A stretch of DNA of 39,827 nt. It comes from a virus. Location: UHGV virus genome UHGV-2125590; one strand, 5' to 3'. Every line of letters starts with the position of its first letter. The first letter of the stretch is position 1. Below, one piece after another: positions 8,936-38,430 of this stretch. The notes under the pieces are model-generated. The model had not been told where the DNA came from and did not search any database. It saw nothing but the letters and a program-made list of their open reading frames with translations. The translations under genes were made by a program, and so were the position numbers.

Positions 8936-9634
8936 ATGGAAAGTAATATCAAAGGGTTAGTTTCCGCCGGGCATGAGATGGCTTCGGAACTGAAAGCAGA
9001 ATGTGGTGCCGTTGATATGCGCAGTGTGGCAAAGCTGATCAGCGATTTGGCAACGCAACTGGAAGTGCAACTGGTGCGTGCTAATGCGATGGCCGAAGAC
9101 CAGCAGAAAGCGATTGAGTCAATTAAGCAGGCTGATTCGGCTGTTAAGTTGGCACACGAGAAGTTTTCGGAGCTGGCAGCGGAGAATGCGGCGCTGAAGG
9201 CCGGGGCTATGTATTTCTCATATGGCTCTGAATTTAGTTTCGAGTGTCACAAAACTGCTGAGGAGGCTATCGCTGCTGCTGAGGCTGCAATTGACGACTA
9301 TAGAGGCGATGCTTGCGATGGATGGAGCGAAGAGGTCGAAAGCATTTGCTGGGGGGTAATTATTCAGCAGGCAACCAAGGTCGGTGAACGCAAGAAGAGG
9401 AAATGCGACAGAGTATCACCATGGATTGAAAGAGTTTGTGATTATGAGCTTCGACCTAATGTCGAAACCCCAGCCACCGATGCTTTCCTGGCTGAAATTG
9501 AACGCAAAGCAATCCGCAAGTTCATTAACAGCATTGAACACATCCTGCGTGACAAGTTGTCACCGTATGACACCGAAGAGATGCTTGAGGCTATGCGTAT
9601 TTTTCTGGAAGAACAGGGAGGTGAGCAAAAATGA
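8936..9634 (+). CDS. Ea22-like early protein
   Basis: 232 aa coiled-coil-rich N-terminus; GAGGG RBS; typical lambdoid Ea22-type composition. Confidence 0.45.
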   Translation: MESNIKGLVSAGHEMASELKAECGAVDMRSVAKLISDLATQLEVQLVRANAMAEDQQKAIESIKQADSAVKLAHEKFSELAAENAALKAGAMYFSYGSEFSFECHKTAEEAIAAAEAAIDDYRGDACDGWSEEVESICWGVIIQQATKVGERKKRKCDRVSPWIERVCDYELRPNVETPATDAFLAEIERKAIRKFINSIEHILRDKLSPYDTEEMLEAMRIFLEEQGGEQK

Positions 9635-9948
9635 CGATCACAAAACAACGTGTAGAAGAAATCATATCCCGTATTGAAATGTATGGTCATGGTGCCGGGT
9701 ATACCGCTGATGAGGTTTATGACCTTGCTGTACTGGCGCTGAATTTATCAAATATCGCAAAACTCAAGCGATACGAGCTTGATATGGATGGTTGTGACTC
9801 GTTCGGTCAGGATTGTGGCGCTGACATGACTGAAGATTCTGATGGCGATTATGTCCTGTTTGATGACGTGGTTAAGTTGTTTGAGTTTGATACAACCACT
9901 CAGAAGTTAGAAAGCCCAGCAAAGGAGGCAACCAGTGAGCAAGATTGA
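9631..9948 (+). CDS. hypothetical protein
   Basis: 105 aa; GGAGGTGA RBS; start overlaps upstream stop. Confidence 0.5.
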   Translation: MTITKQRVEEIISRIEMYGHGAGYTADEVYDLAVLALNLSNIAKLKRYELDMDGCDSFGQDCGADMTEDSDGDYVLFDDVVKLFEFDTTTQKLESPAKEATSEQD

Positions 9949-10507
9949 CTATCAGGCACTGCGTGAGGCGGCAGAACGTGCAATTCCGGCAATGGAACGC
10001 CTGTTAATGTTGCCAGTTGATGATGATTTGTTAAGTGAACAGGAACTTAAGGATTACGGTGTGGATATTGATGCGCTCAACGCCTTCAAATTTCTGACCG
10101 GACCAGAAACCGTGCTGGCGCTGCTGGATGAACGGGAAAGAAACCAGCAATACATCAAACGCCGCGACCAGGAGAACGAGGAAATTGCGCTAACGGTAGG
10201 GAAGCTGCGCGTTGAGCTGGAAGCTGCAGAGAAGCGCATTGCAGAACTGGAAGCCGAACCTGTAAGCCAAACTTACAAGTTGAACGAGCTGTCGGGCAAC
10301 TATCCGGTAACTCCGGATGGTTGGATAAGCTGTAGTGAGCGAATGCCCGCTCAAGATGATTGGATTTTAATTTATTCAAAGCACGGCGAGTATATGGCAG
10401 GACAGGTACAAGGGGAATACGTGGAGTTGAGCGACGGCACTTTATCGTGGTTAGGGAACGCCTTGTACTGGATGCCTCTACCGGAACCGCCGCAGGAGGT
10501 TAATTGA
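9935..10507 (+). CDS. Ead/Ea22-like protein with DUF551-like C-terminal domain
   Basis: GTG start with AAGGAGG RBS; DYQALREAAE N-terminus and C-terminal WISCSERMP...W motifs. Confidence 0.6.
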   Translation: MSKIDYQALREAAERAIPAMERLLMLPVDDDLLSEQELKDYGVDIDALNAFKFLTGPETVLALLDERERNQQYIKRRDQENEEIALTVGKLRVELEAAEKRIAELEAEPVSQTYKLNELSGNYPVTPDGWISCSERMPAQDDWILIYSKHGEYMAGQVQGEYVELSDGTLSWLGNALYWMPLPEPPQEVN

Positions 10508-10701
10508 TGGTCTCCTTCGCGAAATATACGATTATTGACTGGATAGCATTCATTCAGGTTTTGCTCATCTGGTTTTATATGGCTTACAGGAGTGGACAGT
10601 GGATTGTCAGTGTAGCCTGTAGCAATGGATGGCGTTGGTGGAACCGAAAGAATAAAAAAAGCGCTGGCCTTGGCTTCGTTTTACGAAGCATTCAATCTTA
10701 A
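10507..10701 (+). CDS. small hydrophobic membrane protein
   Basis: 64 aa; ATG 10507 after GGAGG; hydrophobic core IIDWIAFIQVLLIWFYMAY and basic C-terminus. Confidence 0.4.
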   Translation: MVSFAKYTIIDWIAFIQVLLIWFYMAYRSGQWIVSVACSNGWRWWNRKNKKSAGLGFVLRSIQS

Positions 10702-10784
10702 CAGTCTTCAGCCTGGTTCTGTCGTTGTAGTCACCACTCAAAGCGGCATGACGATACAAATTCACAAGCCAAAGGAGGAAGGTC

Positions 10785-11066
10785 GTGGCTAACCTGCAAC
10801 TTGCCGTTAAAGGTGAATACTTCGATGCCATGATTCGCGGAGAGAAAACGGAAGAGTATCGCCTGTGTAATGACTACTGGAATAAGCGAATTATGTTCCG
10901 CGAGTATGACCGCCTGATTATCACAAAGGGATATCCGAAGCGCGACGATTCCAGCCGCAGAATTGACGTCCCGTATGACGGATATGAAATCAAGACAATC
11001 ACACATCCGCACTTCGGCGATAAACCGGTAAAGGTGTTCGCTATAAAGGTGAATATTGATGGCTAA
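10785..11066 (+). CDS. ASCH/DUF3850-like domain protein
   Basis: 93 aa; GTG start with AAAGGAGG RBS; GEYFDAMIRGEKTEEYR pattern resembling ASCH-fold proteins. Confidence 0.45.
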   Translation: MANLQLAVKGEYFDAMIRGEKTEEYRLCNDYWNKRIMFREYDRLIITKGYPKRDDSSRRIDVPYDGYEIKTITHPHFGDKPVKVFAIKVNIDG

Positions 11067-37400: not shown

Positions 37401-37556
37401 GTAATGGAAGACATCATTGAGCGCGTTGAAATAACGCCAGCAGGATCTAGATGGGGGGTCAGACCTGATCTCTTATTCTATATCGAGGCGGCATGGCAGC
37501 GCAGAGAAATAGAAAGAATAAAAGCTAGGTTAGACTTAATAGAAGGGAAGCACTAA
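34434..37556 (+). CDS. tailspike / tail fibre with conserved N-terminal adaptor domain and C-terminal chaperone-like domain
   Basis: 1040 aa; N-terminus TGNGVTTSFPYTF...KSDLVV typical of podovirus tailspike adaptor domains; GGAG RBS. Confidence 0.75.
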   Translation: MTVSTEVDHNEYTGNGVTTSFPYTFRIFRKSDLVVQVSDLNGNVTELVLDTGYTVTGAGTYSGGSVVLPSPLATGWRITIDRVLDVVQETDLRNQGKFFPEVHEDAFDYLTMLIQQCFGWFRRALMKPSLLAKYYDAKQNKISNLADPSFEQDAVNNRSMRNYVDAAIAGVVGGFGWFIQYGSGAVYRTFQDKMRDAISPKDFGAVGDGINDDSTAISACLEASSPGYKIDGLGLTFKVSTLPDVSRFKNARFLFERIPGQPLFYASEDFIQGELFKITDTPWYNAWTQDKTFVYDNVIYAPFMAGDRHGVNNLHVAWVRSGDDGKTWTTPEWLTDLHENYPTVNYHCMSMGVVRNRLFAVIETRTVSGNKLQVAELWDRPMSRSLRVYGGITKAANQQVAYIRITDHGLFAGDFVNFSNSGVTGVTGNMTVTTVIDKNTFTVTTQNTQDVDQNNEGRYWSFGTSFHSSPWRKTSLGTIPSFVDGSTPVTEIHSFATISDNSFAVGYHNGDIGPRELGILYFSDAFGSPGSFVRRRIPAEYEANASEPCVKYYDGILYLTTRGTLSTQPGSSLHRSSDLGTSWNSLRFPNNVHHSNLPFAKVGDELIIFGSERAFGEWEGGEPDNRYAGNYPRTFMTRVNVNEWSLDNVEWVNVTDQIYQGGIVNSAVGVGSVCIKDNWLYYIFGGEDFLNPWSIGDNNRKYPYVHDGHPADLYCFRVKIKQEEFVSRDFVYGATPNRTLPTFMSTSGVRTVPVPVDFTDDVAVQSLTVHAGTSGQVRAEVKLEGNYAIIAKKVPSDDVTAQRLIVSGGETTSSADGAMITLHGSGSSTPRRAVYNALEHLFENGDVKPYLDNVNALGGPGNRFSTVYLGSNPVVTSDGTLKTEPVSPDETLLDAWGDVRYIAYKWLNAVAIKGEEGARIHHGVIAQQLRDVLISHGLMEEESTTCRYAFLCYDDYPAVYDDVITGQREMPLTDNDGSIIVDEDDNPVMVMEDIIERVEITPAGSRWGVRPDLLFYIEAAWQRREIERIKARLDLIEGKH

Positions 37557-37664
37557 ATGTTTCGTTGGCGTCAAAAATATGAACTGCTCACATAAAGAAG
37601 TAAGTACATTGGCAAAAAACATTGACGTCAACGAAATTAAATATAAAAATTTAAATGCTTTTTA

Positions 37665-37693
37665 ATGACAAGAAAAGTAACTAGTGGTAAAAT
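37665..37693 (+). promoter_or_regulatory. sigma70-like promoter for the acetyltransferase gene
   Basis: -35 ATGACA, 17-bp spacer, -10 TAAAAT; AGGA RBS 7 nt before ATG 37710. Confidence 0.4.
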
Positions 37694-37709
37694 AACGTAG
37701 GATACTAAT

Positions 37710-38430
37710 ATGTCAAGACTCAAGACTCAAGACTCAAGACTCAAGACTCAAGACTCAAGACTCAAGACTCAAGACTCAAGACTCGTTTTCCGTTGATGAT
37801 AATGGATCAGGTAATATTTTTGTATGTGGAGATCTTGTAAATAGCAAAGAGAATAAAGTTCAGTTCAATGGAAACAATAACAAACTTATTATAGAAGATG
37901 ATGTTGAGTGTCGATGGCTTACCGTAATATTTAGGGGTGATAATAATTACGTAAGAATACATAAAAACAGTAAGATTAAAGGTGATATTGTCGCAACAAA
38001 AGGTTCAAAAGTTATTATCGGTAGAAGAACGACAATAGGTGCAGGTTTTGAAGTCGTCACTGATAAGTGCAATGTTACAATTGGCCATGACTGCATGATA
38101 GCAAGAGATGTTATTTTGCGTGCATCAGATGGGCATCCTATATTTGATATTCATAGCAAAAAAAGGATTAATTGGGCAAAAGATATCATTATATCTAGTT
38201 ACGTATGGGTAGGGAGAAATGTCTCTATAATGAAAGGGGTATCTGTTGGAAGCGGATCTGTCATTGGGTATGGGAGTATTGTAACTAAAGATGTGCCATC
38301 TATGTGTGCAGCAGCCGGTAATCCAGCAAAAATAATAAAAAGAAATATAATATGGGCAAGAACGGATAAAGCGGAGCTAATTAGTGATGACAAGAGATGC
38401 TCCAGCTATCATGCGAAGCTCACGCAATAA
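37710..38430 (+). CDS. hexapeptide-repeat acetyltransferase, candidate phase-variable gene, out of frame as sequenced
   Basis: ATG 37710 frame stops at 37794; body ORF (frame 1, open 37696-38430) has hexapeptide-repeat/left-handed beta-helix character (IGRRTTIGAGFEV...IGHDCMIARDVIL...VWVGRNVSIMKGVSVGSGSVIGYGSIV); 9 or 12 repeats would fuse them. Confidence 0.6.
37713..37782 (+). repeat. 10 perfect tandem copies of heptamer TCAAGAC directly after a start codon
   Basis: Counted directly: ATG at 37710-37712 then (TCAAGAC)x10, then TCGTTTTCC. Confidence 0.95.

Follow-up and report, generated by a model that had tools for sequence, protein, structure and literature searches.

A phiV10-like prophage sequence with a hybrid endosialidase tailspike gene and no lysis cassette

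The virus genome UHGV-2125590 is a DNA sequence of 39,827 nucleotides, and the whole of this stretch is called the window here. It is a phiV10/epsilon15-like (Uetakevirus), K1-specific prophage of Escherichia coli, integrated at the 3' end of guaA. In a DNA comparison, phages PAS61, phiv142-3, O157 typing phages 9 and 10, ZX5, TL-2011b, and phiV10 matched positions 8400-20000 of the window at 97-98%. As listed in Table 1, the phiV10-type genes run from the integrase on the left to the tailspike gene on the right, and the tailspike gene is followed by genes of another K1 prophage, CUS-3. The subject of this study is what is missing between the two. An initial annotation, made by eye from the letters of positions 8936-38430, had reported neither a holin-endolysin-spanin cassette nor a Q-like antiterminator, and had rightly warned that such an absence is a limit of reading by eye.

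The absence of a lysis cassette from the window is real, and it was borne out by tblastn, blastn, Pfam, PHROGs, and NCBIfam searches. When the phiV10 lysis proteins p27, p28, p29, p30, and p30a were compared with all six reading frames by tblastn, the best E-values were 0.32, 1.1, 2.0, 0.27, and 3.0, respectively. The phiV10 control proteins were recovered in the same six frames at 98-99% identity (integrase at 193-1440, p21 at 30920-31057, p24 at 33984-34238, and p55 at 11059-11394). In a blastn search, the DNA of the phiV10 cassette matched the window only at positions 1-196, a stretch that lies downstream of Rz in the free phage. The Pfam search covered 83 open reading frames (ORFs), that is, 30 from positions 8936-38430 and 53 further ones comprising all early genes and 38 ORFs of at least 25 amino acids (aa), mostly outside genes. 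No lysozyme, amidase, SLT/transglycosylase, holin, spanin, or antiterminator family, including the Q type, was found among the matches of these 83 ORFs. Ten candidates gave zero families in NCBIfam, and the only window ORF that fell into a lysis category of PHROGs was the one for an 837-aa internal virion protein. Thus, a glycoside hydrolase family 19 (GH19) endolysin of about 209 aa was not found, and no GH19 or other lysozyme family appeared in the Pfam, NCBIfam, and PHROGs scans of the window ORFs; the 102-aa holin and the preceding 134-aa membrane protein were not found, with no holin family in the Pfam and PHROGs scans; and the nested Rz/Rz1 pair was not found, with no DUF2514 match in the Pfam scans. 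Two further hiding places were considered. Lambda-like lysis genes upstream of terS were rejected, as the ORFs at 8936-11627 show no lysis families in Pfam and PHROGs; they are Ead/Ea22-DUF551, DUF4752, and a phiV10p54-like protein (ASCH in the annotation of relatives), and the rest are without assigned function. Hidden holins among the 38 small intergenic ORFs were also rejected, as these gave a single Pfam match, which appears to be the second half of a frameshifted DUF4752 gene.

The relatives tell where the cassette is usually kept. The gene order in phiV10 is tailspike, oac, p27 (the 134-aa membrane protein), p28 (the 102-aa holin), p29 (the 209-aa GH19 endolysin), p30/p30a (Rz with nested Rz1), terminator, attP, and int, and PAS61 and ZX5 are annotated in the same order. 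In the closed genome NZ_CP070111.1, guaA is followed by int, the remaining phage genes, the endosialidase tailspike gene, and genes annotated as 'putative holin', 'phage holin family protein', 'glycoside hydrolase family 19 protein', and 'DUF2514'. The closed genome NZ_CP126926.1 has the same layout, after which the host genes resume from yfgI. Among the loci having a phiV10-type spike N-terminus and enough flanking or downstream DNA, the four lysis genes come right after the spike in all 23 of the 23 IMG/VR loci and in 11 of the 11 metagenome loci. Transcripts of the holin and endolysin genes have been measured for ZX5 (PMC9782041), and the epsilon15 GH19 endolysin of 209 aa is active and lytic (PMC12391199). 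Phages of this family lyse their hosts in the ordinary manner, with the cassette downstream of the tailspike gene and upstream of attP and int; in an integrated prophage, the cassette is the last 2 kb or so before attR.

In the window, this slot holds neuO and intS of CUS-3. The tailspike gene (34434-37556) encodes a complete endosialidase of 1040 aa, including the C-terminal chaperone, and it is a hybrid. No similarity to CUS-3 was found in the window before 35132. Over the 2653 bases from 35132 to 37784, there are 8 mismatches to the CUS-3 prophage of strain PA45B, and within 35132-37510, there are 5 mismatches to the guaA prophage of strain FDAARGOS_1301. From about 37511 on, that is, for the last 45 bp or so of the tailspike gene and beyond, only CUS-3 matches. 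Of the type-diagnostic single-nucleotide polymorphisms (SNPs), those at 35162 and 35213 are of the phiV10 type and that at 37490 is of the CUS-3 type, which brackets the switch between 35213 and 37490. The crossover is not placed more finely because the polymorphisms inside the repeat are common to both prophage types. The CUS-3 sequence CP000711.1, in which siaK1, neuO, and int are annotated, matches 35132-39827 at 99.3%. Its neuO is annotated with a poly-psi heptanucleotide repeat, and in the window, Tandem Repeats Finder reported 10.3 copies of TCAAGAC with a 100% match. The neuO start codon, the ATG at 37710, does not share a frame with the intact coding body, which ends at 38430. Since neuO is thus in the OFF phase, gene callers report just a C-terminal ORF of 111 aa (38095-38430). 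In PA45B, IntS is followed by tRNA-Arg (argW) and yfdC; the features of the right end of CUS-3 are present in the window, while argW itself would fall past the window end. The sequence changes partner inside the tailspike gene, from a phiV10-type N-terminus through a shared endosialidase segment to the end of CUS-3, and the cassette is missing because of this switch. The initial annotation had supposed that lysis functions might lie outside the window and had proposed to extend it rightwards. The family cassette does directly follow the tailspike gene; rightward extension would be futile, since the DNA there is that of CUS-3 toward argW.

Table 1. Features of the window discussed in the text
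Feature	Position	Strand	Evidence and remarks
Prophage left end	1..192	+	Begins at the first base past the guaA stop codon; holds the terminator-like hairpin that trails the lysis cassette in the free phage
phiV10-type tyrosine integrase, guaA-specific	193..1443	+	98.8% to phiV10 p31 over 416 aa; adjoins guaA in the closed genome NZ_CP070111.1
Frameshifted DUF4752 gene	10504..10792	+	Pfam DUF4752 in both pieces; intact 94-aa gene in the FDAARGOS_1301 prophage locus
Cys-rich 112-aa protein (phiV10p55 homologue)	11059..11397	+	98% to phiV10 p55; directly upstream of terS; possible regulator
Terminator-like GC hairpin and T-run	11633..11650	+	7-bp stem with 6 GC pairs, then TTTATTTT; inverted repeat I2; consensus match only
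837-aa internal virion/ejection protein (phiV10p18 homologue)	24118..26631	+	PHROG 992 'head protein', full length, E=0
Predicted Enc34-type (PHA02564) lysozyme-like peptidoglycan-hydrolase domain, residues 249-398	24862..25311	+	phmmer against PDB; fold match
46-aa two-helix membrane protein (phiV10p21 homologue)	30920..31060	+	97.8% to phiV10 p21; PHROG 7892, without assigned function
Tailspike N-terminal (particle-binding) part, phiV10 type only	34434..35131	+	68% to the phiV10 p25 N-terminus; 99-100% to K1 Uetakevirus prophages
Endosialidase catalytic segment	35132..37510	+	About 2.4 kb, about 99.7% common to guaA phiV10-like and argW CUS-3 prophages; Pfam endosialidase domains and Peptidase_S74 chaperone
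Last tailspike codons, CUS-3 type (...REIERIKARLDLIEGKH)	37511..37556	+	Identity to guaA prophages collapses after about 37524; CUS-3 identical through 37501-37600 compared
neuO, K1 capsule O-acetyltransferase gene of CUS-3, phase-OFF	37710..38430	+	Heptanucleotide repeat at 37713-37784; Hexapep domain
intS-type argW-specific integrase gene of CUS-3/CPS-53	38670..39827	-	Pfam integrase domains; 'prophage integrase IntS' in PGAP

Both ends of the window are informative. In the FDAARGOS_1301 locus (NZ_CP070111.1, 4835373-4881000), the sequence from position 4181 of the locus onward, directly behind '...gagtgggaatga' of guaA, matches window positions 1-60 with 2 differences. The boundary thus reads '...gagtgggaatga' followed by 'ttaacagcta...', the first letter of the latter being window position 1, and the shared att core is ATTGAGTGGGAATGA. 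At the other end, the last three bases of the window are the start codon of the second, unrelated integrase gene on the minus strand. Since both window ends coincide with gene ends, it is suggested that the provirus was trimmed from a larger contig at gene boundaries. FDAARGOS_1301 has two tandem copies of its phiV10-like K1 prophage at guaA, and where the copies meet, the attP region of the phage is reproduced.

The left end also bears on one way in which the cassette might have been kept. If a circular phiV10-like genome had entered a resident CUS-3 by one homologous crossover in the tailspike gene, the resulting order on the chromosome would be CUS-3 body, hybrid spike gene, holins-endolysin-Rz, attP, the window, and argW, and the cassette would lie just left of the window. 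Such a cointegrate would be viable, would predict both types of junction that were seen, that of L090 and that of the window and L077 (below), and agrees with the colinearity of window 1-196 with the phage sequence behind Rz (phiV10 26735-26930, 98.5%, starting 126 bp past the Rz stop codon). However, the window starts exactly at the base past the guaA stop codon. In the attP form, the guaA frame upstream of window position 1 is open for only four codons, so that no gene call would end there and the observed boundary would be a coincidence. Moreover, none of the 5,426 closed genomes examined has this arrangement, and I regard it as very unlikely.

How, then, did the join arise? It was not found in any of the 5,426 closed E. 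coli genomes; 35 genomes with a phiV10-like body stop matching at 37524, and the 148 with the CUS-3 end have CUS-3 upstream of that end. No hybrid junction was found in 50,697 phage records or in the IMG/VR contigs, and a search of 153 billion gene positions gave no record of a tailspike protein with exactly this hybrid sequence. Four closed genomes (CP031215, CP126926, CP160121, and CP160125) have both prophages, and in these, the tailspike genes are direct repeats 168-172 kb apart. The polarity of the join would correspond to a deletion between two prophages lying in the same orientation about 168 kb apart. The interval between them holds hda, dapA, bamC, and dapE within its first 45 kb, and, on the K-12 map, presumably also ligA, zipA, and gltX. 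The dapA, dapE, and hda genes are essential in E. coli K-12, and a deletion from guaA to argW should be lethal. Since the deletion would remove essential chromosomal genes, the join would most likely have been made in silico, by misassembly across the repeat. Assemblers are known to have trouble with the repeat, and fourteen draft or metagenome contigs (nine from IMG/VR and five from metagenomes) end at its edges. A window reaching from the base after guaA to the ATG of intS fits gene-boundary trimming of a contig that ran from guaA through the prophage to the argW side. I therefore think it probable, though by no means certain, that the join is an assembly chimera across the endosialidase repeat and that the actual phage would have a normal cassette.

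The only other hybrids found are two metagenome contigs, and they can be read in another way. One (ERZ812616 NODE_5006, referred to as L077) has the same polarity as the window, a SPAdes-style name, and 3.6x coverage, and in it the phiV10-type side runs into a variant of CUS-3 that lacks neuO. The other (OLNK01001912.1, L090) is reciprocal, with CUS-3 genes upstream and a phiV10-type lysis cassette downstream. If the junction were real, it would have been formed in the cell by homologous recombination between the endosialidase genes, which are about 99.7% identical, either between two prophages or between an infecting phiV10-like phage and a resident CUS-3. The hybrid would have lost the lysis cassette and gained neuO and intS, and host lysis would no longer be possible. 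Near-identity over 2.4 kb is ample for RecA recombination, gene conversion or exchange in the past is suggested by SNPs that the two spike types have in common inside the repeat, L077 and L090 come from independent assemblies, and a published account describes the argW region as a hotspot of recombination in which remnants of CUS-3 decay (PMC9659370). On the other hand, guaA at the left would make the joint a deletion of the 168-kb direct-repeat interval with hda, dapA, and dapE, the junction is absent from all of the closed genomes, and every hybrid comes from draft or metagenome assemblies, one of them at only 3.6x. A real junction is accordingly rather unlikely, and so, slightly more, is the broader view that the endosialidase genes of two unrelated K1 prophages serve in vivo as a recombination bridge that makes hybrid prophages. 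If this were true, a 'locked-in' prophage, without a lysis cassette but with the capsule-modifying neuO and a second integrase, could arise in a single step, along with the reciprocal product, as in L090.

Several points weigh against an assembly chimera all the same. The two independent contigs could equally be traces of real recombination, and the SNPs inside the repeat are compatible with a crossover as well as with a collapsed repeat. That dapA, dapE, and hda are essential rests on knowledge of K-12. The flanks lie beyond the window, with guaA at the left being deduced from the exact boundary only. The case calls for caution in any event, as a prophage that seems to lack lysis genes and is otherwise complete invites claims of unconventional lysis or domestication. 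Where K1 prophages with a common endosialidase gene reside together, contig breaks and chimeras are to be expected at that gene.

The initial annotation was mistaken in one respect, as it had seen no lysozyme-, amidase-, or transglycosylase-type gene. In PHROGs, the 837-aa protein matched, besides its best match 992, families labelled 'endolysin' (1044, 873, and 10475) and 'tail injection transglycosylase' (7182). The gene lies among those for internal virion proteins, with a T7_gp14-like gene at 23573-24118 (Pfam) and PHROGs 308 and 418 ('internal virion protein') upstream. The 837-aa protein has zero Pfam matches even at E<=10, and no Pfam domain was found in any of the 120 listed homologues from a family of 2292 proteins (E<=1e-5). 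In a phmmer search against PDB, residues 249-398 matched 7Q47 (E=2.7e-17) and 9VVP_L (E=4.7e-38), and the former alignment spans residues 249-367 against 7-139. The 7Q47 structure is the endolysin catalytic domain of Hafnia phage Enc34, family PHA02564, which is muralytic in turbidity assays and has a catalytic Glu131 and conserved Trp79 and Tyr95 (PMC8943055). These three residues align with E360 (25195-25197), W313 (25054-25056), and Y325 (25090-25092), respectively. In an alignment of 48 diverse homologues taken from the family, Y96 never varies, E131 hardly ever does, and the W is part of a consensus RWAPP motif. An AlphaFold (AF2) model of residues 230-421 had a mean pLDDT (predicted local distance difference test score) of 87.7 and showed an all-helical fold like the lysozyme alpha-lobe. 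The only significant Foldseek match was to chains A and B of 7Q47 (E of about 1e-10, probability 1.00, template-modelling score 0.70-0.73), with no other at E<=0.001. The domain is 99.4% conserved in phiV10 p18. As judged from alignment and model together, residues 249-398 are a homologous Enc34-type domain, predicted to be muralytic, with the catalytic residues and the fold conserved, and would be the sole wall-degrading function encoded in the window.

The original phiV10 annotation had called p18 'similar to structural protein P5 of PM2'. This likeness is now explained by a later model of P5, which is a structural protein of the virion, as an enzyme of the Enc34 type (bioRxiv 10.1101/2022.07.18.500477). 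The same Enc34-type domain is found at the N-terminus of Gp29, a 1295-aa phage protein recently solved as 9VVP chain L, which may be direct structural evidence for such a domain in a virion protein. For annotation, the muralytic domain of the phiV10/epsilon15-type internal virion protein has gone unrecognised by Pfam, NCBIfam, and PGAP (Prokaryotic Genome Annotation Pipeline), the last of which names the protein just 'bacteriophage protein'.

Is this domain a lysis enzyme? The initial annotation had proposed that lysis functions may be embedded in the ejection proteins, and as far as a predicted muralytic domain is concerned, it was right. However, a Kyte-Doolittle scan of the 837-aa protein showed no hydrophobic segment of the signal-peptide or membrane-helix type, and relatives with the same protein keep a full canonical cassette. 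For these two reasons, the domain is probably a virion-borne entry enzyme that would cut peptidoglycan when DNA enters the cell. It counts against this assignment that, for the phiV10/epsilon15 family, the entry role is an analogy with other podovirus ejection proteins.

The initial annotation had also named two small membrane proteins as holin-like candidates, and neither is supported. The ORF at 10504-10701 is the N-terminal piece of the DUF4752 gene, which is broken because its A-run at 10654-10660 has one A too many (A7, as compared with A6 in the FDAARGOS_1301 locus), and the gene lies in the early-right accessory region, with no lysis context. The extra A may reflect a real pseudogene or a sequencing error; in the latter case, it would be a second sign of imperfect assembly. 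The conserved 46-aa protein at 30920-31060 is outside the lysis cassette of the family, as the p21 gene of phiV10 occupies the same place, right after the last ejection-protein gene, and phiV10 has true holin genes besides.

Taken as a whole, the initial annotation amounted to a phage without a canonical cassette, in which the small membrane proteins would act as holins, an ejection protein would supply the lysin, and a Cys-rich protein would control late expression instead of a Q-like factor. The ejection protein does have what appears, by alignment and model, to be a genuine muralytic domain, a hydropathy scan showed hydrophobic segments in both small ORFs, and no Q-type antiterminator family was seen anywhere in the window by Pfam. 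However, all intact relatives that have this ejection protein and the 46-aa protein also have a holin, a GH19 endolysin, and Rz/Rz1, one of the two small ORFs is a frameshift fragment in the early-right region, and the 837-aa protein is without a hydrophobic segment. The comparative data largely refute unconventional lysis, and I give it hardly any credence.

As for late control, neither the phiV10 annotation nor that made by PGAP for one closed-genome relative includes a Q-type antiterminator. The Cys-rich protein belongs to PHROG 536 'transcriptional regulator' (E=1.7e-54). A search at E<=0.001 gave 726 homologues, and those with an organism name among the 120 listed are all from Enterobacterales. 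Among the homologues, there is no variation at C40, C79, C82, C91, C93, and H106 and almost none at C99. The protein has no Pfam or NCBIfam family at E<=0.01, no PDB sequence match, and no Foldseek match with an AlphaFold model of low confidence (pLDDT 65). Zinc-finger late activators of the P2 Ogr/Delta type were considered for it, but a match to that family was not found in these searches, and the conserved Cys/His residues place it in no known family. The terminator-like hairpin at 11633-11650 separates the small ORFs of the early-right region from the terS body, and it is conceivable that a regulator acts at or downstream of it. Promoter and terminator scans of 8400-15200 gave no more sites than expected from shuffled sequence. 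The annotated start of terS is TTG at 11624, as in phiV10 and PGAP, which gives an odd low-complexity N-terminus that includes the hairpin; the gene may really start at the paired ATG codons 11702/11705.

Three other features were observed. A tRNA-Arg gene (anticodon TCT) lies inside the phage at 14434-14510 on the minus strand, between the large terminase and portal genes, adjoined by a strong 14-bp terminator-like hairpin at 14390-14355; relatives, namely prophages of closed genomes and the O157 typing phages, have the tRNA gene annotated as well. A 242-aa protein (33230-33958, plus strand, PHROG 6762), encoded in the variable stretch that separates the ejection genes from the tailspike gene, has an N-terminal hydrophobic helix and two C-terminal Cys-rich units, whose likeness to the zinc-binding regions of Lar-like proteins and endonuclease VII is weak. 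A protein of 77 aa (31105-31338, minus strand), with a hydrophobic stretch like that of a signal peptide, matches PHROG 3117 and PHROG 14503 'membrane associated protein' (moron category), and its gene runs opposite to the late operon.

The prophage type, its lysis module, and the partner prophage CUS-3 are all already known, and the case as a whole is ordinary. Like phiV10, epsilon15, and the closest isolates vB_EcoP_ZX5 and vB_EcoP_PAS61, the window has the same gene order, with 97-98% DNA likeness from int through the ejection proteins, and the same terS, terL, portal, capsid, internal virion proteins, p21, p24, and p55; with ZX5, it shares the endosialidase tailspike as well. It differs from them between the tailspike gene and int, where the phages have the membrane protein, holin, GH19 endolysin, and Rz/Rz1 genes and the window has CUS-3 DNA. 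Conversely, the right end resembles CUS-3, a P22-like K1 prophage at argW (CP000711.1), in the endosialidase catalytic part with its C-terminal chaperone, in neuO with its repeat, and in the intS-type integrase, whereas everything left of 35132 (the tailspike N-terminus and the structural, replication, and early genes) is unrelated to it.

The predicted muralytic domain has its own parallels. It shares with the Enc34 endolysin the homologous, lysozyme-like, all-helical domain with the Trp/Tyr/Glu signature. However, the Enc34 enzyme has an N-terminal catalytic domain and a C-terminal membrane anchor of two helices and is encoded in a lysis cassette between holin and spanins, whereas the domain of the window protein is internal to 837 aa, without a hydrophobic segment, and its gene lies among the ejection and internal-virion genes, an architecture other than that of a whole endolysin. 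In PM2 P5, the same domain is likewise part of a virion structural protein. Virion-associated peptidoglycan hydrolases are known from podoviruses, such as the transglycosylase domain of T7 gp16, and are presumed to digest the wall locally at entry. As in the T7 gp16 type, the predicted domain of the 837-aa protein lies within a large internal/ejection protein beside gp14-like core proteins, but it is of the Enc34 type rather than of the SLT/GH23 Pfam family.

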